DNA of 64,000 bases from contig JBHLQM010000003.1 in assembly GCA_048884785.1 (NCBI GenBank), positions 1 to 64,000 on the forward strand. Reading direction: 5' to 3'. Shown here in pieces: positions 23,880 to 44,316 of this stretch. Below the pieces are notes generated by a model, which saw only the letters and a program-made list of their open reading frames with translations, made no database searches and was not told where the DNA came from. Both the position numbers and the translations under genes were made by a program. This DNA comes from Candidatus Thorarchaeota archaeon (GTDB taxonomy: Archaea > Asgardarchaeota > Thorarchaeia > Thorarchaeales > Thorarchaeaceae). Numbering within the stretch: position 1 is the first letter of the stretch; each line of letters opens with the position of its first letter.

Positions 23880-24770
23880 TTATTGAGGTGCTCCGCAATA
23901 TGGGCATACCTTGGTATTAGGCTCAAAGGTTCTTCCGCATGAGAAACAGAAACTCAACCTCCCACTCTCCCGTTTTGCTTCTTCAGTGAAGGGACTAAGT
24001 TCACCTTCGGAAAACAGCGCACCTATGCCCTCCAGATTTGGATCCGTTCCTATTCGACATACTCCTTTAGAATCCAATTCGCGCGTCGCGTGTCGCATCT
24101 CATCCATTAAGCTTCCATCCATTGGTACATCTGTAAAAGAACCGCTTCTTCCGCGAGATGTGTAGTCAGACGATGACCTTTCGTAGCCACGAGCACTGTT
24201 CTCTCGATCCCATCTATCTCTCCTATCGGTTGCAGAGAGTGGCTTGCTCCGATTCTCGAAAGATCGGTCTAGAGCATCAAAATCCCTTCTATAGTCATCC
24301 GTACCGAAACCTCTGTCTATCGCCGGCTTGTTTGCAGCTCTGGCTTGAGGAACATCTCCCCAATCATACGCTGCGGATGAACCACTCCGAGATGCATCAA
24401 GAAACCTGTGATGAGCATCTCCTTTTAGCTGCTCATACTCCTCAATAGAAAGACCAAGAATCTCAAGAGCGCGGTCTCTCTCTGCACATCTTTTGGTCAT
24501 AGGACAACAGTATGAAAGACTGCTGTGACACAGGGCTGCCATCGCGCGTTCCTGACTTGATTTGTAAATTGGCGTGATCTTTCGTCTCCCAAGAATGAGA
24601 GCATCTCCAGTAGAACGGATTTCTGAATATCCAGATTGTGCTAGTGCTTCAACAATCTCTCGCGCAGGATATGCCTTTCCCTCAATGATCACAGTCCCCT
24701 CTGTTCGATCAAGTCTGACAGGCTTTTCTTCGCGTCTTTCTCCGTAGTCTGGATATCTCGTTATGGGCAC
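23880..24770 (-). CDS. Hypothetical protein with Cys cluster (methanogenesis-marker-9-like half domain), low-complexity R/D/S linker and C-terminal zinc ribbon
   Basis: LCHSSLSYCCPMTKRCAERDRALEILGLSIEEYEQLK. C-terminal CFSCG...CPYCG. Confidence 0.6.
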   Translation of the reverse strand: MPITRYPDYGERREEKPVRLDRTEGTVIIEGKAYPAREIVEALAQSGYSEIRSTGDALILGRRKITPIYKSSQERAMAALCHSSLSYCCPMTKRCAERDRALEILGLSIEEYEQLKGDAHHRFLDASRSGSSAAYDWGDVPQARAANKPAIDRGFGTDDYRRDFDALDRSFENRSKPLSATDRRDRWDRENSARGYERSSSDYTSRGRSGSFTDVPMDGSLMDEMRHATRELDSKGVCRIGTDPNLEGIGALFSEGELSPFTEEAKRESGRLSFCFSCGRTFEPNTKVCPYCGAPQ

Positions 24771-31560: not shown

Positions 31561-31896
31561 CTATTCAGCTTCTACGATAACCGCAGTCCCATAAGCGGAA
31601 AACACGGTTGCAGTCCCGGCAAGAATATCACTTGTTTCAAAGTCTGCACCAATTACTGCATTGGCACCCATTCGTTGTGCATTCTCTTTCAGTCTCATCA
31701 ACGATTCAGCTCTAGACCTTTCACATTCTTCCGTATAGGAGTGCACTTCGCCTCCGAGTATTCCTGAAATGCTGGCAGAAATCTTTCCACCTACACCTCG
31801 AGTTCTTACTGTCAGTCCATGGACAACTCCTATTATCCTCACAACACGATAGCCTGGCAAATGGGGTAGTGTTACTACCATAATTGCTTCGTTCAT
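31561..31896 (-). CDS. YbjQ/UPF0145 family protein
   Basis: GGEVHSY, A..MGANAVIG, AYGTAV. Start trimmed. Confidence 0.9.
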   Translation of the reverse strand: MNEAIMVVTLPHLPGYRVVRIIGVVHGLTVRTRGVGGKISASISGILGGEVHSYTEECERSRAESLMRLKENAQRMGANAVIGADFETSDILAGTATVFSAYGTAVIVEAE

Positions 31897-31971
31897 ACGA
31901 CCTGTTGGAAATGTAATGATATAAGTTTCAGCCATGTTATTTGTGATCGTACTGCTTCTTGGGTGCAAACA

Positions 31972-32056: not shown

Positions 32057-32836
32057 ATGTACGAAACCATTCAATCCGAACTATTCGCTTCAATAGCAAC
32101 ACTTGATCAGCTAAAGAAGATGTATGATCTTGGCGCCGTTGATATTCGTTCATATCACCAAGAGTCAGAGGCTCTTGTTCATGAAGTGAAAACACAAATT
32201 GAGGAACTACGGCGGATGGGACTTGATATCAGTGCCTTTCTGGAAAATGAGCGGATTACTGAAGCATTCCCAGATGCTTCAGGCCTTCTCAGTCTCTTTG
32301 AAAGGCGACCTCAATCTTCACTGAATGGGCTCACTCTTGATGAATACTACGATCAACTAGGTCTAGCAGTTCTGGATGTCGCCACCATTCATGCATCCAA
32401 GGGACTAATGGGTTTGGCAGAATTGATAGTTGAGGTTGTAAAGAGGGTTCCACAATTCAAATCTGTTAGCTATAATGACGTGATTGAATCTGTCAATAGA
32501 GTTGCACAACATGGCCTCATACCTGGAATCAAGAATCTGCGAGGGGGAGTAAAAGTAGTCGAGCTTCGCCCGCTGGAGCTCCGAAGAGACCAAGCCGATG
32601 TTGTCAATCTTGCAGCTCTCAAAGGTTATACTTCAGTTGAAGAGATTATGATGCAATTGAAATGGTCAGAGGAACATGCTCGACAGGTATTAACAAGTCT
32701 TGTAGATGTTGGAATGGCAGTTGCAGATATTAGGTTCAGTACTGGAGGGAGATATTACTTCCCAGGACTAAGGTCTCGAGAGTCACAAGAATCCAATGAT
32801 GCATTTCATCCGAGCCGTATGTATGGGGACTCATAG
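32057..32836 (+). CDS. Fusion of a Vps28 N-terminal (ESCRT-I) domain and a Vps22/36 EAP30 tandem winged helix (ESCRT-II)
   Basis: aa ~5-70 SELFASIATLDQLKKMY..G.V....Y......L resembles Vps28 (AELFAVVKTMQALEKAY...Y...L). aa ~93-240 DEYYDQLG...GLM.L.EL...VS.NDV...P.EL..DQ..V..LA..KGY.SV......LKW.EE.ARQVL..L...G.A..D.....YYFPGL resembles SNF8/Vps22. Confidence 0.85.
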   Translation: MYETIQSELFASIATLDQLKKMYDLGAVDIRSYHQESEALVHEVKTQIEELRRMGLDISAFLENERITEAFPDASGLLSLFERRPQSSLNGLTLDEYYDQLGLAVLDVATIHASKGLMGLAELIVEVVKRVPQFKSVSYNDVIESVNRVAQHGLIPGIKNLRGGVKVVELRPLELRRDQADVVNLAALKGYTSVEEIMMQLKWSEEHARQVLTSLVDVGMAVADIRFSTGGRYYFPGLRSRESQESNDAFHPSRMYGDS

Positions 32837-32847
32837 TCGGCGCTTGA

Positions 32848-33585
32848 TCAGATTTCGATTTTTATTGCTCCTTTCTTTTTATCTACCCAAGCTGCAAGTC
32901 CCTTTTGCACAATGAATCCCAAAACTATCTCAATATCAGCCTCAGGGAGCTGTGCAAAATCCTCACCTGATTCTTGAATTACAATGGATTTCACATCCAG
33001 TAGCAGGTTCCCGGTCTTGAGAGCCCATTCGTAGACAATGTCCGCCCACTCTTCTAGCGGACGCCAATAGACTCTCAGCTGTCTTCTGCCTCTATCGAGC
33101 CAGTCTGCAACTTCTTTCTGAACCAGCATATCGCCTATCATTCTGAAAGCATCAACCTTCCCTAGCATCTCGCTGAATGGTTTTTCCTTAAGGAAAGCTG
33201 AAACGGAAATGACATGGATTCTACCTGCCTGAGCCCATTCCAGAAGGAAATCTCCCCATTCTTCAGCCCAAAGAATCTTGTCTTCATCTCTCGCTGGAAT
33301 GTGATACATCCACTCCGAATCGGAGGAATCCCCCCATGATGGCAGCATGCATTCTTCTTTTACTTCAGCTACTGCTTCTTTTACCTCAGTTGATTCAGTT
33401 TCGGCAGCGATTTCACTATCTTCAATGGGGGTTGTTATCACTACTTCGGGTCGATGAATCTTCTTCTCTTCTTCAGCCACATCCAATGTGACCTCTGGAA
33501 TTGTTGGAGCCTCTGTGATTTTGACTTCGTCTACTTTTTCCTCTGTCTTGGACTTCTTTTCTCTGCGCTTTTCTTTTACCCCCAA
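32848..33585 (-). CDS. vps25: ESCRT-II subunit Vps25 with charged N-terminal extension
   Basis: W.EEWGDFLLEW and VYWRPLEEWADIVYEWA..TG correspond to Vps25 WRRPEEW...IY.W. Upstream vps4 is co-oriented. Confidence 0.85.
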   Translation of the reverse strand: MGVKEKRREKKSKTEEKVDEVKITEAPTIPEVTLDVAEEEKKIHRPEVVITTPIEDSEIAAETESTEVKEAVAEVKEECMLPSWGDSSDSEWMYHIPARDEDKILWAEEWGDFLLEWAQAGRIHVISVSAFLKEKPFSEMLGKVDAFRMIGDMLVQKEVADWLDRGRRQLRVYWRPLEEWADIVYEWALKTGNLLLDVKSIVIQESGEDFAQLPEADIEIVLGFIVQKGLAAWVDKKKGAIKIEI

Positions 33586-33588
33586 GAC

Positions 33589-34809
33589 CTAGGAACCCTC
33601 CGCCCAATCGACATACTTCTTCAAGTCCTCCGGAGAGGTTGCAGGACGGATGTTCTCAATCGCCCTCAAGAAATCCTCTCTCGAAACTCGACGAAGCTCG
33701 ACTATCTCCTCCTCTTCTTCCATCTTACCTGAAATCTGCAAATCCCTTATTGGCTCCATAGCAGCCTCTCTGCATACAATACTTAGGTCTCTTCCGCTAT
33801 ATCCTTCGCACAAGTCTGCAAGCTCGCTGTAATCCACATCTGCATCAATCTCTATATCTTCCATATGGATTTCGAAGATTCTCTTTCTGGCGGTCTTGTC
33901 AGGCAATGGGACCGCAATCCGCTTTTCGAACCGAGAACGCAGCGCAAAATCCAACTCCCAGGGAAGATTAGTTGCTCCGATTACCGTTACTCTGTCTTCG
34001 ACATCGCTAGCAAGTCCTTGCATCTCAGTGAGGATTTGAGTTTTCATGCGTCTTTCCCCACCAACGTCATCGCTTGACCTGGCAACGCCAATGGAATCAA
34101 GCTCGTCAATGAATATAATCGCAGGCTGATTTCTACGAGCCATTTCAAAGAGACTTCTCACCAGCCTTTCTGATTCTCCAAGCCACTTACTAACAATATT
34201 AGCCGCTGAAACATTGAAGAATGTCGCATTGATCTCAGATGCTACGGCTTTCGCAATCAGTGTCTTTCCACATCCGGCAGGTCCGTAGAAGAGAATTCCT
34301 CGCCACGGCTGCCTTGCTTTACCCTTGAACAGCTCGGGGTGTTTCATTGGGGCAATAATAGCATCATTGATAGCTTGTTTTGCCTCTTTGAGACCTGCTA
34401 CTTCAGACATCTTTACTTTTGGTTTCTCAGAGATGATAGTGTCTTCGATCATCTCACGCAATTTCTTGGTGTCTTCATCTTCTTCAGAAATAGCCTCTGC
34501 CTTTCTGTCTGTGCCCGATGGGTACATTTCAGTATTCTCTCTCGGTACTGGGGTTGAGAGTCCTTCAACTGAACCACTCGACACTTTCTTTATTCCTGAG
34601 ATGAACCTTACACGATCGACACATTCTTGAGCTCTCTTTAGGTAGTGTTTCCTTACGGATGGAAGGGATGCAGAATTTGATAGTTTGATGAGGATTTTGC
34701 TTGCCTTCAGATAATGTTGGCAGGCCTCTTTCTTCATCCCTCTGTTATCGAGCTCGATGGCGCGATCTAATAGATTCTTCAGACCCTGATCAATGCGGTC
34801 TCCTGACAT
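33589..34809 (-). CDS. vps4: Vps4 AAA ATPase (MIT + AAA)
   Basis: N-terminal MIT (AIELD..G...EA...Y), GPAGCGKT, SKWLGESE, FIDELD, GATNLPWELD.A..SRF. Located in the ESCRT cluster. Confidence 0.92.
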   Translation of the reverse strand: MSGDRIDQGLKNLLDRAIELDNRGMKKEACQHYLKASKILIKLSNSASLPSVRKHYLKRAQECVDRVRFISGIKKVSSGSVEGLSTPVPRENTEMYPSGTDRKAEAISEEDEDTKKLREMIEDTIISEKPKVKMSEVAGLKEAKQAINDAIIAPMKHPELFKGKARQPWRGILFYGPAGCGKTLIAKAVASEINATFFNVSAANIVSKWLGESERLVRSLFEMARRNQPAIIFIDELDSIGVARSSDDVGGERRMKTQILTEMQGLASDVEDRVTVIGATNLPWELDFALRSRFEKRIAVPLPDKTARKRIFEIHMEDIEIDADVDYSELADLCEGYSGRDLSIVCREAAMEPIRDLQISGKMEEEEEIVELRRVSREDFLRAIENIRPATSPEDLKKYVDWAEGS

Positions 34810-34953
34810 TTTCCCTCACTTGGCTTTGGATTGAATCCTGTTAAGAACTTCGGTGTTCTATCTGTCATATATTCTATTGCCGTGTATTCTCCTCAGGCTG
34901 CGAAATGTTAAATGGACTGATGTTATGAGGCTGCTTGAGACATATTTTGTCTT

Positions 34954-35583
34954 ATGTTGGTGAGGTCCTTGGGTCCAATCAGAAAGGCGTTTTCATGGGG
35001 TCGGAGAAAACCCGACATCAATGAGGTTACATCCCAACTCCGAGTTCTATCAAAGCAGCTCGAGCGACAGAGGAATAAGTTGGAAAAAGAAGAACGCGAC
35101 ACAAAGACACGAGCGGTTCGTGCACGGAAGTCCGGGAACCTAGAAGCATACAAAACATATGCAACGGAGATGATTCGCTTCCGCAGGTTCGCGCTTTCAG
35201 TGGATAGATCCCGCCTTCAAATTCTAAAGATTCTTGCTCATGTAACTAGAGCTCAGAGTACTGCACAGGCCTCAATCGCACTGGAGCAAGTAGCAAAAAT
35301 CCTTGGTCTTCTCGGCGATTCAACAGATGCAAGCAAAGTTGTAGCGAATGCTGATGAAATATCACGTAGACTCGAGGAATTTGAGATTGAGAGCGGGATT
35401 ACCGGCGAGGCTTTTGACTCAACCGGAGATGCACAGCTATCATCAGAGGATATTACAGCTGCAATGCATGAAATTGATGTTGAAGCCGGAATGGCCGAAG
35501 GTGCCGCAACTGGGGTTCCTATATCAGAAGCCGAAAAGCTTGAAGAGGCGATAAAGAATCTCGAACGCGAGTTAGGTGTCTGA
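34954..35583 (+). CDS. ESCRT-III subunit, Vps2/24/46-like
   Basis: Basic N-terminal hairpin (KQLERQRNKLEKEE...A.KSGN....K.YA.E.IR.RR), acidic C-terminal half, terminal amphipathic MIM1-like helix LEEAIKNLERELGV. Confidence 0.88.
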   Translation: MLVRSLGPIRKAFSWGRRKPDINEVTSQLRVLSKQLERQRNKLEKEERDTKTRAVRARKSGNLEAYKTYATEMIRFRRFALSVDRSRLQILKILAHVTRAQSTAQASIALEQVAKILGLLGDSTDASKVVANADEISRRLEEFEIESGITGEAFDSTGDAQLSSEDITAAMHEIDVEAGMAEGAATGVPISEAEKLEEAIKNLERELGV

Positions 35584-37152
35584 TTACCATCTGGATCCAG
35601 AAGATGACCTTTGGATACTTTCCATCTCTCTCCTGGCATTATACGAGTCCCTCATAAGATGACGATAGCGTCTGATGAAATCCATCGGTACAATTCTTCC
35701 ACTACGAAGAAGTTCGACCGTTTCCGATAATGCGTGGTCTAGTTCCATTATATTTCTTTGAAGTGATGCAGGCCCTTTGGAATCGATTACGAAATCCTCT
35801 TTTCGATAGCTATCCCGATTATTAATGGTTCTTCCAAGTTCTCTCTTGAACTCTGGTGTGGCATATGAGGAATCTCTGTATCTCCAAGGATTAGATGATA
35901 TTCTGCTCCATTCATCTCCCGAATAATGAGCCTGTATCGGAGGAATGCCTCTATCTGTTGGGATTTGCGGTCCGGGTGATAACAGGGAGTAGACCAATCC
36001 CTCGACCTTCATACGAACGTCGCTGATATTGATGTTTACTTGTTCTATCTTGCGGACTCTCTGAAGATCGGTCTGCATATATCTGTCAAATTTCCGGGCA
36101 ATTTCAATGTAATCCGGTAGAACCTTTTGTGTCTGTTCGCTAGAGGCTAACTTCACTTCTCCTTGTTTGAGTTTCAGAACCAACCGTTTTCTAATCCTTC
36201 CATCTTCTTCAATGGAATTGAGGTAGAGTAGCGGGAAGTCAAACAACACCTCCATCTTCTTCCTGACTAAGCCTGTTTCAGCAATAAACACCAATCTTTT
36301 GTTGGTTATATACAGAGATCCTGTAGCTTTGTCATTTCTAAGAAAATCGCTACCCGTTACTTTGATTTCAGGAAGGGCACATACAGGGAGTTCATTAACA
36401 GTTAATTCGGCTGCATCAAAGAAACCCGAAAACTTCTTTCTATAGTAATCAAGACCATCAAGCTGCCGTTTTACATCATCAAGTTTGGTTCTTGCTTCTT
36501 TCAGTGATTCATCCACACTAATTTTGTAGTGTTCTCCCATTTGCATTACTCTGTTTGTTATTCCCTCAATGAATGGAAACTGACTTGTGGACCATCTACC
36601 ATAATCAATAATTCCTGTGGTTTCTGCAGCCATTTTCTTTGCAGCTATCTCAGCTTGCGCTGTTATCCGATTCTTCAGAGCTTCAACTTCGTTTTGAACA
36701 CTCTCAAGGTTTTCTTCAAGCCAGTTATAATGTAGAAAATTGGCCATACGCAATGACACAAGGAGACGTTTTGCGGAAACAAGAGCATTATTGAACTCTC
36801 TCAGTTTTGTGTGTCCATGATGGATGCTCATGATGGCTTGTCTTAAATCCTGAGCCAGTCCCCGTTTCTTCTCTTCGATACTTACGATTGTAGTTGAATG
36901 ACAACGGGGGCATATCTCTTCAACTCTGCGTCCCCTCCCAAGATTCTCAGACTCGCATTCCGGACAAATATCGAATTTCTCACCCGAAATTGGGATTCCC
37001 AAATTATGATGACATTCGTTGCAGACCGTGTATTGGCTTGTCCGGGTTTCCAGACAGTCTGTGCACAGTGTAGCACTGCAATCCTCACACAAGTGAGTGG
37101 CTCGGTTTGAATCGCACAGATGACAAGTCGGTCGCATCGAGTCTTCTCTCAC
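35584..37152 (-). CDS. B-box/zinc-ribbon, coiled-coil, PH/GRAM-like and Vps23/37 steadiness-box protein (ESCRT-I-like)
   Basis: CHLC....A...CEDC...LCTDC, further CxxC pairs, long heptad region, GSLYITNKRLVF, C-terminal LDHALSETVELLRSGRIVPMDFIRRYRHLMRDSY. Likely GTG start at 37152 after GGAGG. Confidence 0.75.
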   Translation of the reverse strand: MREDSMRPTCHLCDSNRATHLCEDCSATLCTDCLETRTSQYTVCNECHHNLGIPISGEKFDICPECESENLGRGRRVEEICPRCHSTTIVSIEEKKRGLAQDLRQAIMSIHHGHTKLREFNNALVSAKRLLVSLRMANFLHYNWLEENLESVQNEVEALKNRITAQAEIAAKKMAAETTGIIDYGRWSTSQFPFIEGITNRVMQMGEHYKISVDESLKEARTKLDDVKRQLDGLDYYRKKFSGFFDAAELTVNELPVCALPEIKVTGSDFLRNDKATGSLYITNKRLVFIAETGLVRKKMEVLFDFPLLYLNSIEEDGRIRKRLVLKLKQGEVKLASSEQTQKVLPDYIEIARKFDRYMQTDLQRVRKIEQVNINISDVRMKVEGLVYSLLSPGPQIPTDRGIPPIQAHYSGDEWSRISSNPWRYRDSSYATPEFKRELGRTINNRDSYRKEDFVIDSKGPASLQRNIMELDHALSETVELLRSGRIVPMDFIRRYRHLMRDSYNARREMESIQRSSSGSRW

Positions 37153-37337
37153 GTAAGTGCCTCCAATATCATATCTTATCAGTGCCATAGCCAAGAATAA
37201 GTCGTGTATCACCCGGGTATTAGTGGGTGCTCATTCCTATTTGGAGCAGAGATTCGCTTTTTACATGAAAACATCGATGCTAGATTTCAATGCCAATGTA
37301 GTATTAGTTATATCTGATTGAAATTTCAAATCTCCTC

Positions 37338-38723
37338 ATGGAAGAACTTGCTCAAAATGCTATTGAGGCGGCTCTCAAAGAAGGTGCAACATTTGCAGAC
37401 ATCAGGATTGAGAACTCAATTTCAACAATCATAGAGCTTTCTGACGGAGTCACCAAGAGATCAATGGCATCTAGGCTTAGGGGCGCTGGGATTCGTGCGT
37501 TTGTTGATGGCGCCTGGGCCTTTGCACAGACAACAGATTTGACTCCATCAGGGATGCGAGATGCCGGTGAATCTGTCGCGCGCCTTGCGATGGCAACTCG
37601 CACCAAAGTTTCCGAGAAATTCGAGATTGAAGGACCTGCCTTCAATGGCAAGGAAGAGTTCAGTTTGCGAATGCATTTCAATGATATACCTATTGAGGAC
37701 AAGATTAGGTATGCCAAGGAGATTGATGATCAAGCAAGGAATTATGACTCACGCATTGTAAATACAAGAACAGTCTATGGTGATTTATGGACTGAACTCT
37801 ATATTGTGAACTCCCTTGGTACGCGCATATACACAGAAAACTCGCTACCACGGATAATATCTGCTCCGACTGCCAAGGAAGGAACTAGCCGGCAACGTGC
37901 CTTCAAGTCAATCGGTGTGCGCGGCGGATATGAAGAGATGCTGAAGGAAGGGCCACAGAATATAGGTACAGACGCTGCCAAGCAAGTCATAGATCTTTTA
38001 GCTTCCGAAGCCGCGAAGGGTGGCAACTATGATGTCATCATGGATCCTGTTCTGAACGGAGTGATGGTTCATGAGGCATTTGGTCACGCGTGTGAGGCTG
38101 ACAATTGGCCGGCACATACAACAGTACTCGAAGACAAGGTCGGGGAAATCGTTGGACCTGAGCATCTTAATCTAAGTGACGATCCCACACTGGCTGGAGA
38201 GCGAGGTTCATTCAAATATGACTGGGAGGGCACCAAGACTAAGAAACGGCATCTAGTTAAGAATGGCGTTCTTACTGACTTGCTTCATAGTCTTGAAACC
38301 TCGTCAAGATTGGGAATGGAAGCTAATGGTGCGGCACGAGCACAGTCTTTCATGTATCCTCCTGTTCCAAGAATGAGCAATACTTTCATGGAGCCCGGAG
38401 ATTGGAATGTTGAAGAGCTGATTCAGGATACAAAGGAAGGTATTCTTCTCTGTAGTTTCAATTATGGCTATACAGAGCCATCGAAAGGTCAATTCATGTT
38501 TCAAGCTAGTCACGGGTATTTGATAGCAAACGGGGAACTTGGCCAAATTGTTCGAGATGTGTCTCTCGCAGGTCAGATACTAGAAGTGCTATCGAAAATC
38601 GATGCTGTTGGTAATGATTTCGAAATGGATGCCGGAACCTGTGGAAAGTCAGGTCAGATGGTTCCTGATATGAGTGGTGGACCGCATGCAAGAATTCGAA
38701 ACATCCCTGTAGGAGGAATGTAA
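37338..38723 (+). CDS. tldD: TldD metalloprotease
   Basis: HEAFGHACEAD, YDWEG, PRMSNT, CGKSGQ.VP...GGPH. Confidence 0.92.
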   Translation: MEELAQNAIEAALKEGATFADIRIENSISTIIELSDGVTKRSMASRLRGAGIRAFVDGAWAFAQTTDLTPSGMRDAGESVARLAMATRTKVSEKFEIEGPAFNGKEEFSLRMHFNDIPIEDKIRYAKEIDDQARNYDSRIVNTRTVYGDLWTELYIVNSLGTRIYTENSLPRIISAPTAKEGTSRQRAFKSIGVRGGYEEMLKEGPQNIGTDAAKQVIDLLASEAAKGGNYDVIMDPVLNGVMVHEAFGHACEADNWPAHTTVLEDKVGEIVGPEHLNLSDDPTLAGERGSFKYDWEGTKTKKRHLVKNGVLTDLLHSLETSSRLGMEANGAARAQSFMYPPVPRMSNTFMEPGDWNVEELIQDTKEGILLCSFNYGYTEPSKGQFMFQASHGYLIANGELGQIVRDVSLAGQILEVLSKIDAVGNDFEMDAGTCGKSGQMVPDMSGGPHARIRNIPVGGM

Positions 38724-38724
38724 G

Positions 38725-40071
38725 GTGGTCGACCTGATTAGTATTGCTGAAAAAGCTGTCAGAAAAGCACTGCAGCTCGGCGCCGAGCAAGTTGAGGCAT
38801 ATGCTGCATATTCCAGATCCTTCGCAATTGAGGTGGAGAATAATGCTATCAAAACCGCAGTTGAGAAGCGTGACGCCGGAATTGGTATCAGATCTGTGAT
38901 TGACAAGAAAATCGGTTTTGCCTATGTCACGACACTGCAAGAAGATGACTACGAAGAAGCAGTCATGAATTCAGTAAAACTTGCCAAAGCATCAATTCCA
39001 GATCCTGACTTTCTTTCACTCCCATCAATGACAACGTCTTATCCTGCTGTTAATGGATTGTTCGACAAGGATGTTGCTGAACTATCGTCCGAAGAAGCTG
39101 CAGAGATGGTGATTAGGTCCGTAGACGCATCAAAGGATTCTGTGAAGGGAATGAAGGTAGCAACAGAGTCACAACTCACAACCTCTGCGGGATCAAAAGC
39201 GATTGTGAATTCACTAGGAATCTCTCAAAAAGCAGAGAGCACATCAATCATGATGTACTGTTATCCATCAGTCAAATCAGATAATGACCAGTCTGCTAGT
39301 TTTGAGTATCAGGTTTCTAGATCTTTGCGTAAGATTGATCCCGAATGGATAGGAAGAACGGCATCAGAGAATGCAGTGAAGAGCCTTGATGGCATTACTA
39401 TAGATGGTGGGGACATGCCTGTTGTTCTATCTCCACTAGCAGTTGGTACTATCATTGGAGGGGGCTTTGCAGGTGCAGTAAATGCTGAAGAAGTACAATA
39501 TGGACGGTCTTACATCTCAGACGCGTTTGGCTCAACGATAGCCTCAGAAAGTCTATCCATTATTGATGATGGTACATTGGAAGGTGGTACTGGCTCAAGA
39601 AACTTCGATGGTGAGGGATTTCCATCTCAAAAGACTCCAATACTTGAGAATGGTATCCTGAAGAGTCTGCTTCACAACTCCTATTCTGCCAACAAAGATA
39701 ATGTACCAAACACAGGAAATGCGAGTCGACCTTCATATGCTGGAATTCCTTCGATTTCTCCTTCTAACTTCATGGTGAATCCTGGCAACGGGTCGCTTGA
39801 CGATTTGGTTGGTGAGATTACCAAAGGTGTCCTATGTCTGAATACGGGCGACCGACCAAACATGACCACAGGTGACTTGAGTGCAATGATAATGGAGGGC
39901 TTCTTGATTGAAAACGGGGAAATAGGTTCCTCACTCAAGAATACACTCATTGGAATCAATATGCGTGATCTTCTACTACGAGTGAGTAGGATTGGAGCAG
40001 ATGTTAGAGAAGGATTCTCTATAATAAGTCCCTCTTTAGTCATTGAGTCAGCAAAGGTTACTTCGGGATAA
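38725..40071 (+). CDS. pmbA: PmbA/TldE protein
   Basis: FDGEG, TGNA.R, N.TTGDLS, SPSL. No HExxH. Follows tldD. Confidence 0.9.
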   Translation: MVDLISIAEKAVRKALQLGAEQVEAYAAYSRSFAIEVENNAIKTAVEKRDAGIGIRSVIDKKIGFAYVTTLQEDDYEEAVMNSVKLAKASIPDPDFLSLPSMTTSYPAVNGLFDKDVAELSSEEAAEMVIRSVDASKDSVKGMKVATESQLTTSAGSKAIVNSLGISQKAESTSIMMYCYPSVKSDNDQSASFEYQVSRSLRKIDPEWIGRTASENAVKSLDGITIDGGDMPVVLSPLAVGTIIGGGFAGAVNAEEVQYGRSYISDAFGSTIASESLSIIDDGTLEGGTGSRNFDGEGFPSQKTPILENGILKSLLHNSYSANKDNVPNTGNASRPSYAGIPSISPSNFMVNPGNGSLDDLVGEITKGVLCLNTGDRPNMTTGDLSAMIMEGFLIENGEIGSSLKNTLIGINMRDLLLRVSRIGADVREGFSIISPSLVIESAKVTSG

Positions 40072-42379: not shown

Positions 42380-43342
42380 ATGATTGGACTGGCCAGTAAG
42401 CAAGCGAAAACCAAGAAGCAGAAGGAGCTCACTGGGACGGCCAGCTACGTATGCAGTGCTTGTTCTTCTACAACAATGTATATTGACCACACTCGTGGAG
42501 AGGTTATCTGTTCTGACTGTGGCCTTGTTTTGTCGGATCGATCAATCGATATGGGTCCGGAGTGGCGCGCCTTTACCGCTGATGAGCAGAATTCTCGTCA
42601 GCGTGTGGGAGGCCCTGCTGACTGGAGTAAATTTGATCAGGGACTCACAACGATAATCGGACGACAGAATGTTGATGCCTCGGGCAGAAAACTGACTTCT
42701 ACTAGAAGAGCACAGATCCATAGGCTACGCAAATGGCAGATTCGTACCAAGGTGCACTCTTCTGACAAGCGCAACCTCGCAGTCGCTATGACCGAGTTGC
42801 ACAGAATAAGCTCTCAATTGAGCATCCCATACTCAATTCGAGAAACCTCAGCTGTCATCTATAGGAAAGCCCTTCGCAAACGATTGACGCGCGGTCGTAC
42901 TATCCTCGGCATGATCGCGGCATCTCTGTATCTCGCATGTAGGGTACATCAGGTGCCCAGGCCGCTTGAAGAGATATGCGACCAAATACACATTACTCGC
43001 AAGGAGCTGAGTCTTTGTGTCCGTCTCATTCTTCGTTATCTCCAGCTGAAGATTCCGCACTCCAATCCTGTGGAGTTTGTCCACCGTTTTGGAACTGAGC
43101 TGGGAATTCCGGGTGAGGCGAAAAAGAAGGCAATTGATATCCTTAACCTAGCAAGAGAAGAGCGGCTCACGATAGGGAAGGATCCGAAGGGAATGGCGGC
43201 AGCAGCAATCTACGTGGCTAGTATTCTGACCGGAGCCAGACGTACACAGCTTGAGATTGCTAGAACTGCCCGTGTGACCGAGGTGACGGTTAGAAATCGC
43301 TACAAAGAGATGGTTGAGAAGCTAGGAATTTCGACCACATAA
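42380..43342 (+). CDS. tfb: Transcription initiation factor IIB
   Basis: Zn ribbon CSAC/CSDCG, GPEWRAF, RLRKWQ, two cyclin repeats, GKDP.G.AAAAIY, VTEVTVRNRYKE. Confidence 0.95.
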   Translation: MIGLASKQAKTKKQKELTGTASYVCSACSSTTMYIDHTRGEVICSDCGLVLSDRSIDMGPEWRAFTADEQNSRQRVGGPADWSKFDQGLTTIIGRQNVDASGRKLTSTRRAQIHRLRKWQIRTKVHSSDKRNLAVAMTELHRISSQLSIPYSIRETSAVIYRKALRKRLTRGRTILGMIAASLYLACRVHQVPRPLEEICDQIHITRKELSLCVRLILRYLQLKIPHSNPVEFVHRFGTELGIPGEAKKKAIDILNLAREERLTIGKDPKGMAAAAIYVASILTGARRTQLEIARTARVTEVTVRNRYKEMVEKLGISTT

Positions 43343-43482: not shown

Positions 43483-44316
43483 ATGTCAGATCGCAGAGCA
43501 ATTCACGGAGTTTGGTTGATTGAACGCCAGACAGGTAGGAATCTTGTATCGAGAGCCTACAGCGGGATTGAAATCGACATGGATCTTATTGCTCCTTTTC
43601 TCTCAGCAACTCATACATTTATTGACAAAGCATCAAATGAGAACCTCCGGATTATAGACACGGAGAACAGCCGATACATATGGCAAGAAAATGATCAACT
43701 TTTGTTCGTGATGGTTGTATCAAAGGCAGCCCGTGTTGGACACATGCGTTTCATTCTGGAATATGCTCTCACTGAGTTTATGCGTCAACAGGTGCCTACG
43801 GATGAAACAATTGAGAATATTCTAAAGGGCTGGCATGGATCTCCACAGACATTCGCTGGCTTTGGGAATTTTGTTGATGAGCTGGTGAACCAATTCGAGG
43901 AAACAGATGAGGCGCTTATTGCCGGCAAATCGATGGACTGTCTTGAGGTCTACAGCCACCTTTTCAGAGCTATCCTCCGAGTCAAGGTTGACAAGGAGAC
44001 AAGGCAGAAGCTGGTCAAGAGAATTCAAGAACTCGTTGAACCTATACGAGAAGCTAATCCATGCCTTGAGAATCTTGTAATCGATGAATCCGGGGTCGAG
44101 GTCCTTGGCATCGATGTGTATAAGACGAACTATAATAAACTCAGAGACGCGCTGGAGGACCTCTTGAGGGTTGTAGCGGCAGCAACTAAGGAAGTGTCTA
44201 GCAAATCCGCCTTCCGCAAGATGATCTTTGACCAAGCAATGCCCTATGTTAAAAGGGACCTTAACAGAATCGAGACTTACGCAATTCTAGACGATGTTAT
44301 TCGTCATCTGTTTTAG
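43483..44316 (+). CDS. Longin-like domain protein with helical C-terminal domain
   Basis: IHGVWLIERQTGRNLVSRAY...DLIAPFLSA...F, then LLFVMVV. This is the N-terminal pattern typical of Asgard longin-like domains. Confidence 0.7.
   Translation: MSDRRAIHGVWLIERQTGRNLVSRAYSGIEIDMDLIAPFLSATHTFIDKASNENLRIIDTENSRYIWQENDQLLFVMVVSKAARVGHMRFILEYALTEFMRQQVPTDETIENILKGWHGSPQTFAGFGNFVDELVNQFEETDEALIAGKSMDCLEVYSHLFRAILRVKVDKETRQKLVKRIQELVEPIREANPCLENLVIDESGVEVLGIDVYKTNYNKLRDALEDLLRVVAAATKEVSSKSAFRKMIFDQAMPYVKRDLNRIETYAILDDVIRHLF

Follow-up and report, generated by a model that had tools for sequence, protein, structure and literature searches.

A Thorarchaeial ESCRT locus without detectable ubiquitin: a known system with a lineage-restricted Vps28-Vps22 fusion

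INTRODUCTION

How might an ESCRT system choose its membrane or its cargo where there is no ubiquitin to be read? The question is raised by five contiguous genes in Candidatus Thorarchaeota assembly GCA_048884785.1 (the window analysed is the first 64,000 nucleotides of contig JBHLQM010000003.1). An earlier reading, made from the sequence only, saw in them an ESCRT-I/II of possibly undescribed architecture, in which two odd proteins plus Vps25 would supply all the upstream machinery, reshuffled to work without ubiquitin. The architecture has been described: the two proteins and the locus are published, as is the loss of ubiquitin (PMC9192718, PMC10936438), hence the locus is no discovery in itself. 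What is at hand is a known ESCRT system with a modest evolutionary refinement, the confinement of the fusion to the Thorarchaeial order. We think it likely that the five genes are the Thorarchaeial core ESCRT locus, which descends in reduced form from the ubiquitin-ESCRT cluster of ancestral Asgards, and that they work by the mechanism proposed below. Its interest is that of a natural experiment: Asgard ESCRT-I, -II and -III persist order-wide without ubiquitin, and can show ubiquitin-independent ESCRT targeting.

THE LOCUS AND ITS PRODUCTS

Table 1. Genes and domains of the ESCRT locus (positions in the window)
Feature	Coordinates	Strand	Description
Vps28N-Vps22 fusion	32057..32836	+	259 aa; orthologue of ThorAB25_09030 / KXH75178.1, asCOG cog.002769
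Vps28 N-terminal headpiece / steadiness-box domain	32057..32302	+	aa 1-82 of fusion
Vps22/SNF8 tandem winged-helix core	32321..32779	+	aa 89-241 of fusion
Vps25 (ESCRT-II)	32848..33585	-	245 aa, N-terminal acidic low-complexity extension; PF05871 E 7e-13
Vps4 AAA ATPase	33589..34809	-	406 aa; MIT + AAA + Vps4_C; CdvC E 3e-82
ESCRT-IIIA (Vps2/24/46-type)	34954..35583	+	209 aa; Snf7 E 1.5e-8; orthologue of ThorAB25_09000 ESCRT3A
Znr_CC_PH_SB protein	35584..37152	-	522 aa from GTG (probable start); orthologue of ThorAB25_08990 'SB', asCOG cog.011556
Steadiness-box-like helical hairpin	35602..35772	-	aa 461-517; after mostly disordered linker
PH-GRAM/GLUE-like domain	36076..36426	-	aa 243-359; conserved basic clusters R297-K299, R319-R323
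Three long helices, coiled-coil bundle	36430..36879	-	aa 92-241; AF2 model, pLDDT about 84-97
B-box-like + zinc-ribbon Cys/His region	36883..37131	-	aa 8-90; conserved Cys/His; zf-B_box 39/74, DZR 34/74 homologues

All five ORFs were recovered where the sequence-only reading had placed them, and the gaps that it gave for the two convergent pairs, 11 bp and 0 bp, were reproduced. Profile searches and structure comparisons agree with its domain anatomy of the five proteins; Pfam by itself misses the steadiness box (SB) and the PH domain of Znr_CC_PH_SB, for which homologue scans and structure are needed. The longest ORF of that gene extends to 37212 (35584-37212, minus strand); the start is probably the GTG at 37152, because GGAGG lies upstream and a length of 522 aa agrees with the starts of homologues. 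The C-terminal helix of ESCRT-IIIA is, by eye, MIM1-like.

The five genes are contiguous in an order known from Thorarchaeota AB_25, whose orthologous locus, ThorAB25_08990-09030, was tested by two-hybrid in Hatano 2022 (PMC9192718). There the genes are 08990 SB, 09000 ESCRT-IIIA, 09010 Vps4, 09020 Vps25 and 09030 Vps22, with an unlinked 07240 ESCRT-IIIB, and Thorarchaeota are reported to be without ubiquitin. The present genome shares the five orthologous genes (matched by eye), the identical order, the unlinked ESCRT-IIIB (here on contig C6) and the absence of ubiquitin. Named close homologues come nearly all from Ca. Thorarchaeota, at 50-90% identity, and the cluster order is kept in 57 of 65 family genomes, a count made from where the first and last genes of the cluster lie, the full order being read in L099-L102. 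Makarova 2024 (PMC10936438) described both Znr_CC_PH_SB (cog.011556) and SB-Vps22 (cog.002769), with domain architectures as in this locus.

The C-terminal hairpin of Znr_CC_PH_SB (pLDDT about 90 in the AF2 model) appears to be a steadiness box, on matches that are weak yet concordant: hhalign 77% to Vps28N, Vps23_core in 10 of 74 homologues, and yeast Vps23 at E 0.17-0.37. The PH domain of the protein aligns with the PH-GRAM domain of MTMR2 (Z 12.7, rmsd 2.8, 107 aligned) and with the EAP45 GLUE domain at Z 10.5, the latter tied with many PH domains. Foldseek matches to DH-PH RhoGEFs were rejected as an identity, with rmsd 17-25 A and the PH domain alone in common. An ESCRT-I role and a membrane-binding PH were proposed in PMC10936438; PH-GRAM folds also bind proteins, so that lipid binding by this domain is something we infer.

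The same protein had been counted as part of a ubiquitin-free rewiring. Homologous matches turn up in 113 of the 184 Asgard genomes outside the Thorarchaeial order, and several of them share a cluster with ubiquitin (as in L055 and L056); being widespread, and adjoining ubiquitin genes elsewhere, the protein is not a ubiquitin-free adaptation. Such coexistence also tells against an upstream machinery reshuffled to do without ubiquitin.

A CHIMERIC VPS22 CONFINED TO ONE ORDER

The head of the fusion matches 30 of 30 Asgard Vps28 proteins (E 5e-9 to 1e-18); hhalign gives 99.4% (E 1e-21) against Asgard Vps28N, versus 0.5% against Asgard Vps22 N-termini. Pfam finds EAP30 at E 2.7e-14 and a weak VPS28 match at aa 7-64 (E 0.008). 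In the human ESCRT-I headpiece entry 6vme the head aligns with chain 6vme_E (Z 11.1, rmsd 2.1, 78 residues), which we take from its residue range to be human VPS28, a sequence search having given no confirmation. The winged-helix core matches human SNF8 (E 1e-19), yeast Vps22 (E 6e-4) and, in Foldseek, 2zme_A (E 3e-9). [quoted passage not shown] On these comparisons the protein is chimeric, with a head from Vps28 joined to the winged-helix pair of Vps22.

The head itself had been seen before: aa 1-70 of the Thorarchaeial KXH75178.1 match VPS28-N at 99% in HHpred (PMC10936438). That paper words the SB fusion for the entire Asgard Vps22 family, whereas in the 36 non-Thor Asgard Vps22s compared here no Vps28-type head is detectable, an ordinary EAP30 N-terminus standing instead. 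Directly upstream of 28 of these 36 lies an intact vps28; the pattern in most other sampled Asgards is an intact vps28 just upstream of vps22 and co-directional with it. Among sampled Asgards the fusion occurs solely in the Thorarchaeial order, and the fusions form one supported group in the tree (100/99). Thus the covalent link between Vps28 head and Vps22, as first read, is present, and Vps28 profiles, synteny and hhalign make it specific to the order that lacks ubiquitin. Hatano 2022 treats 09030 as a plain Vps22, and the part of that text drawn on here does not describe the Vps28-derived head, the 780-aa paralogue discussed below or the lineage restriction; more generally, a lineage-specific chimeric origin was not found stated in the portions of the literature on these proteins that we cite.

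The fusion would go back to a single event in which the Vps28 C-terminal domain (CTD) and the Vps22 N-terminal helices were deleted between adjacent genes. It looks derived and Thor-specific, and so should not be taken for the ancestral condition in Asgards; its lineage restriction matters for evolutionary models.

UBIQUITIN IN THE GENOME AND THE PHYLUM

The absence of ubiquitin, E2 and UEV genes first noticed in the window extends to the whole genome (91.3% complete), where profile searches gave no match to any of the three, and to the lineage. Ubiquitin was found in 0 of 67 genomes of the order versus 173 of 184 other Asgard genomes, and the E2/UEV fold in 1 of 67 (weak) versus 177 of 184; VPS28 (PF03997) is present in 170 of the 184, versus weak matches only inside the order, where the phylum-wide PF03997 search found no canonical Vps28. 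Three further families, f6, f11 and f19, are likewise mostly devoid of ubiquitin. When this genome alone was searched for ubiquitin, E2, UEV and VPS28, the controls were silent; ubiquitin, E2 and VPS28 were rerun phylum-wide, which gave positive controls for ubiquitin and E2, and the UEV profile was applied to this genome. A separate canonical UEV-Vps23 with ubiquitin, the counterpart that the first reading had named, was not found here, and 65 relatives support the absence of ubiquitin and of E2/UEV.

From distribution and synteny, rather than from a rooted species tree, we infer that loss is a better reading of the ubiquitin-less Thor system than a pre-ubiquitin stage. As the fusion and the ubiquitin loss make up one phylogenetic event, a causal link between them is not established.

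A genome without any Vps28-CTD was considered as well; a divergent copy on contig C2 overturned this. The 353-aa protein in question combines a long coiled coil with a divergent Vps28-CTD-like domain, and such a protein occurs in 39 of 40 family genomes. One relative's orthologue has a weak Vps5 match, and the protein, encoded outside the ESCRT locus, resembles the Thorarchaeial Vps5-BAR/Vps28 fusion of Eme et al. 2023 (PMC10307638; KXH73277.1 in PMC10936438 Table S3). A 412-aa helical protein (C2:62443-63678) was rejected as Vps28: relatives give weak PF03997 matches, but neither the N- nor the C-terminal profile of Asgard Vps28 matches it. The protein at C5:60944-61666 gave no convincing profile match to Vps28.

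PROPOSED RECRUITMENT WITHOUT UBIQUITIN

With the eukaryotic ESCRT-I headpiece (Vps23/Vps28/Vps37) and ESCRT-II (Vps22/Vps36/2xVps25) the Thor set has in common SB hairpins, winged-helix pairs, a PH/GLUE-like domain and zinc fingers. It differs in having no UEV and no ubiquitin, and neither Vps37/Mvb12 nor Vps36 was identified; the I-II link is covalent, where eukaryotes use a Vps28-CTD/Vps36 contact; and the PH domain sits between long helices and SB, unlike in the eukaryotic complexes.

In the mechanism that we propose, Znr_CC_PH_SB would dock on the membrane via its basic PH/GLUE-like domain; its steadiness box would pair with the Vps28 head, carrying the Vps22 core along covalently; Vps22 would bind Vps25, which would nucleate ESCRT-IIIB and IIIA; Vps4 would remodel and recycle the polymer, giving membrane budding, repair or division. 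Sites would be selected via lipid or protein cues, not ubiquitin, and the 780-aa Vps22-like protein and the coiled-coil/Vps28-CTD-like protein probably participate. Yeast two-hybrid work has detected self-interaction of Thor Vps22, Asgard Vps25-ESCRT-IIIB and Vps4-ESCRT-III contacts, and a Loki SB-Vps22 contact (PMC9192718). For the SB/Vps28-head pair a complex was predicted at a score of 0.60, against 0.02 for the best of 3 controls; the prediction may owe its score to resemblance to the Vps23-Vps28 headpiece already solved. The mark for this score is reached by 58 of 80 solved and 2 of 110 mismatched pairs, those at or below 0.60 in that set being 7 solved pairs and both mismatches. The runs share at least 97% of contacts, with partner pLDDT of at least 76. 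The model lends weak support to binding of the Vps28 head by the steadiness box.

The 780-aa protein, encoded on another contig, ends in an intact Vps22 with its N-terminal helices (aa 560-780) and, unlike the fusion, matches the Asgard Vps22 N-terminus profile. Its neighbourhood, both here and in the genomes of the sister family, includes a longin-like/Arf-type GTPase, a B-box protein and a CdvA/SB-like hairpin protein. The winged-helix tree, weak in its deep branches, is compatible with either the fusion core or this paralogue as orthologue of canonical Vps22; synteny favours the fusion. It is possible, if tentative, that ESCRT recruitment was rebuilt after ubiquitin loss, through the fusion of adjacent vps28 and vps22, a Vps28-CTD kept on a coiled-coil/BAR-like protein, and a GTPase- or lipid-guided route that the 780-aa subunit, beside its longin-like small GTPase, would supply instead of ubiquitin. 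That the fusion and the paralogue pair like Vps22 and Vps36 in a heteromeric ESCRT-II, with the neighbouring small GTPase/longin proteins controlling recruitment, is suggested by the same intact Vps22 and the same neighbours; we hold it doubtful, as no full-length paralogue match was found in 5 of 27 family genomes tested, and Thor Vps22 interacts with itself.

Those 5 genomes do have the fusion gene, a point in favour of the self-sufficient ESCRT-I/II of the first reading, as are the tight conserved clustering, the confinement of the fusion to the ubiquitin-less order and the predicted SB/Vps28-head complex. The two proteins and Vps25 are nevertheless not the whole system: ESCRT-IIIB, a second intact Vps22-like subunit and the Vps28-CTD-like protein are encoded elsewhere, and together with the ubiquitin-linked occurrence of Znr_CC_PH_SB in other Asgards they leave self-sufficiency unlikely. 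Least credible, and in our estimate very improbable, is a non-canonical ubiquitin-like modifier of SAMP/ThiS-MoaD type that would tag the cargo and be recognised by the zinc fingers or the PH domain: eukaryotic GLUE and NZF domains do read ubiquitin (PMC10936438), and the genome holds, outside the window, 5 ThiS/MoaD, 1 MoeB-type ThiF and 3 JAB matches, but none of these genes is linked to the ESCRT locus, the ThiS, ThiF and JAB profiles also match many ordinary prokaryote controls, and the ThiF gene adjoins a probable moeA (molybdopterin).

Composition of the five-gene locus

The first gene of the locus encodes a chimera of the Vps28 N-terminal headpiece domain and the Vps22 core. For residues 89-241 the matches are human SNF8 (E 1e-19) and yeast Vps22; residues 1-82 are modelled as a hairpin with short helices, a predicted structure that aligns with the human ESCRT-I headpiece (entry 6vme; Z 11.1, rmsd 2.1, 78 residues). 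A profile of this N-terminus matched 30 of 30 Asgard Vps28 proteins (E 5e-9 to 1e-18), and profile-profile comparison gave 99.4% with Asgard Vps28-N versus 0.5% with the N-terminal regions of other Vps22 proteins from Asgards; those regions are themselves unrelated to Vps28-N. None of 36 standard-length Vps22-like genes examined from other Asgard families carries the Vps28 head; 28 of them have an intact, co-directional vps28 within 2 kb upstream. The fusion was seen in all five Thorarchaeaceae loci examined and in the one sister-family genome, and these form a single supported group in the tree. PF03997 matches occur in 170/184 Asgard genomes outside the order Thorarchaeales and are only weak inside it. 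On the simplest reading, a single deletion would have joined neighbouring vps28 and vps22. In several other Asgards the space between vps28 and vps22 holds a stand-alone Vps28-CTD gene (about 95-105 aa), a feature already recorded by Makarova et al. (PMC10936438).

Re-reading of the five ORFs agreed in every place, strand and convergent gap (11 and 0 bp) with the sequence-only reading. Pfam assigns EAP30 with a weak N-terminal VPS28 match, Vps25, Vps4 and Snf7, and closely related homologues come from Ca. Thorarchaeota. The last gene probably starts at 37152, giving 522 aa, because GGAGG precedes GTG there and homologues start there. The flanks are ordinary. In one family member the cluster is interrupted and the steadiness-box (SB) and ESCRT-IIIA genes are inverted; therefore, the tight layout is not obligatory.

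Absence of ubiquitin

Ubiquitin, E2 and UEV, absent from the window in the sequence-only reading, gave no profile match in the whole genome (91.3% complete) either. With positive controls run, ubiquitin is found in 0/67 genomes of the order versus 173/184 others, and the E2 fold in 1/67 (weak) versus 177/184. The MoeB-type ThiF (adjoining a probable moeA), three JAB matches and five ThiS/MoaD matches of the source genome are ordinary prokaryotic families; a SAMP-like tag is formally possible. Three small families assigned to the same phylum (f6, f11, f19) also mostly lack ubiquitin and E2; Vps28 and Vps22-fusion profiles had zero matches there.

Subunits encoded elsewhere

The fusion, the SB protein and Vps25 had been proposed as a possible minimal ESCRT-I/II; the locus is not the whole ESCRT system, as further subunits lie on other contigs. 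ESCRT-IIIB stands alone on C6, amid metabolic genes. A second ESCRT-like locus on the same contig, similarly arranged in the sister family, holds a longin-like/Arf-type GTPase, a 373-aa protein, a B-box protein, a 185-aa protein (coiled-coil plus CdvA/SB-like hairpin; CdvA E 2e-4) and a divergent 780-aa protein, full-length in about three-quarters of family genomes tested, whose C-terminal part is an intact Vps22 including the N-terminal helices. On C2, a 353-aa coiled-coil protein conserved in 39/40 family genomes ends in a Vps28-CTD-like bundle (against a eukaryotic VPS28 cluster, TM 0.72/0.79; hhalign 54%) and resembles the BAR-Vps28 fusion of Eme et al. (PMC10307638); related domains occur on C118 (E 4e-5) and C1 (E 0.02). 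Two genes upstream of the 353-aa protein, a 412-aa all-helical protein is encoded; it is conserved, and its relatives give weak PF03997 matches. Vps28 profiles gave no convincing match to a 240-aa coiled-coil protein on C5.

Coordinates of features in the window, the source genome and other Asgard genomes
Feature	Stretch	Genome position
YbjQ-family gene, one flank	window 31561-31968	
Probable TldD/PmbA pair (by eye), other flank	window 37338-40071	
296-aa protein	window 23880-24770	
TFIIB-like gene (by eye)	window 42380-43342	
277-aa protein	window 43483-44316	
ESCRT-IIIB	L054:6603-7262	G000 C6:25602-26261
Second ESCRT-like locus	L082:3150-8614	G000 C6:65149-70613
353-aa coiled-coil/Vps28-CTD-like protein	L053:8598-9659	G000 C2:64597-65658
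412-aa all-helical protein	L053:6444-7682	G000 C2:62443-63678
Vps28-CTD-related domain		G000 C118:4900-5439
Vps28-CTD-related domain		G000 C1:20379-20912
240-aa coiled-coil protein	L160:3948-4685	G000 C5:60944-61666
Interrupted cluster, family member	L098	G053 C21:160000-176000
Sister-family second locus	L097	
604-aa protein, family f20	L083:15392-17203	G051
Stand-alone Vps28-CTD genes, other Asgards	L056:6944-7237; L063:4840-5124; L064:5432-5716; L068:4852-5163	

The Znr_CC_PH_SB protein and a possible assembly

The last protein is modelled with confidence (mean pLDDT 81): zinc fingers come first, three long helices follow, then a PH domain with conserved basic clusters, a disordered linker and, at the C-terminus, a hairpin whose matches to steadiness boxes are weak but consistent. 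Structurally, this PH domain resembles PH-GRAM and GLUE folds (Z 12.7 to MTMR2, 10.5 to EAP45-GLUE). Of the family genomes 64/65 contain a homologous match, as do 113/184 other Asgard genomes, some of these matches being partial; in two of the latter genomes (L055, L056) homologue and ubiquitin share one cluster. The protein is thus not specific to ubiquitin loss, and its proposed part in a ubiquitin-free rewiring is not supported.

Complex prediction for SB and the Vps28 head gave 0.60, and the best control 0.02; the tool grades this as weak support, with contact agreement between runs of at least 97% and partner pLDDT of at least 76. The score mark is reached by 58/80 solved and 2/110 mismatched pairs, and at 0.60 or under by only 7 solved pairs plus both mismatches; likeness to the solved Vps23-Vps28 headpiece may account for the score. 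Most likely, by analogy with eukaryotic ESCRT and published two-hybrid data, which are our guide to binding, lipid specificity, assembly order and cellular role, Znr_CC_PH_SB would reach the membrane via its PH domain and capture the fusion through SB-Vps28N pairing; Vps22 of the fusion would bind Vps25, which would then seed ESCRT-IIIB/IIIA, and Vps4 would recycle the polymer. The analysis itself establishes the identities of the domains, the distribution of the genes and the absence of ubiquitin.

Relation to published work

The original observation holds and its interpretation is partly supported; the idea that the system might be undescribed is not, as the Thorarchaeal ESCRT system is already known. 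Hatano et al. 2022 (PMC9192718) take the orthologous ThorAB25_08990-09030 and the unlinked ESCRT-IIIB through two-hybrid assays and state that Thorarchaeota are without ubiquitin; a 2023 preprint (10.1101/2023.07.25.550441) reports UEV-Vps23 absent from Thorarchaeia; Makarova et al. 2024 describe an SB-fused Vps22, for which a Thor protein serves as evidence, and name Znr_CC_PH_SB, which they take to be a likely part of ESCRT-I whose PH domain binds membranes. Beyond the papers cited, a search of incomplete coverage (text only, no figures) surfaced none further on the Thor fusion. What the present analysis contributes is the finding that the fusion is confined to the order, its description as a chimera, and a list of the subunits encoded away from the locus.

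Other observations

The window also encodes a 296-aa protein in which a weak methanogenesis marker 9 domain (E 2e-6) is combined with a zinc ribbon at the C-terminus. Downstream of a TFIIB-like gene it encodes a 277-aa protein whose N-terminal domain is longin-like (Fuz_longin_1 E 5e-4). In G051 (family f20), a 604-aa protein carries the same Zn-finger/coiled-coil/PH module as Znr_CC_PH_SB together with a winged-helix pair. Its architecture is Vps36-like (EAP30 E 2e-11, Vps36_ESCRT-II E 2e-4), a hint that the module is connected with how the GLUE domain arose.
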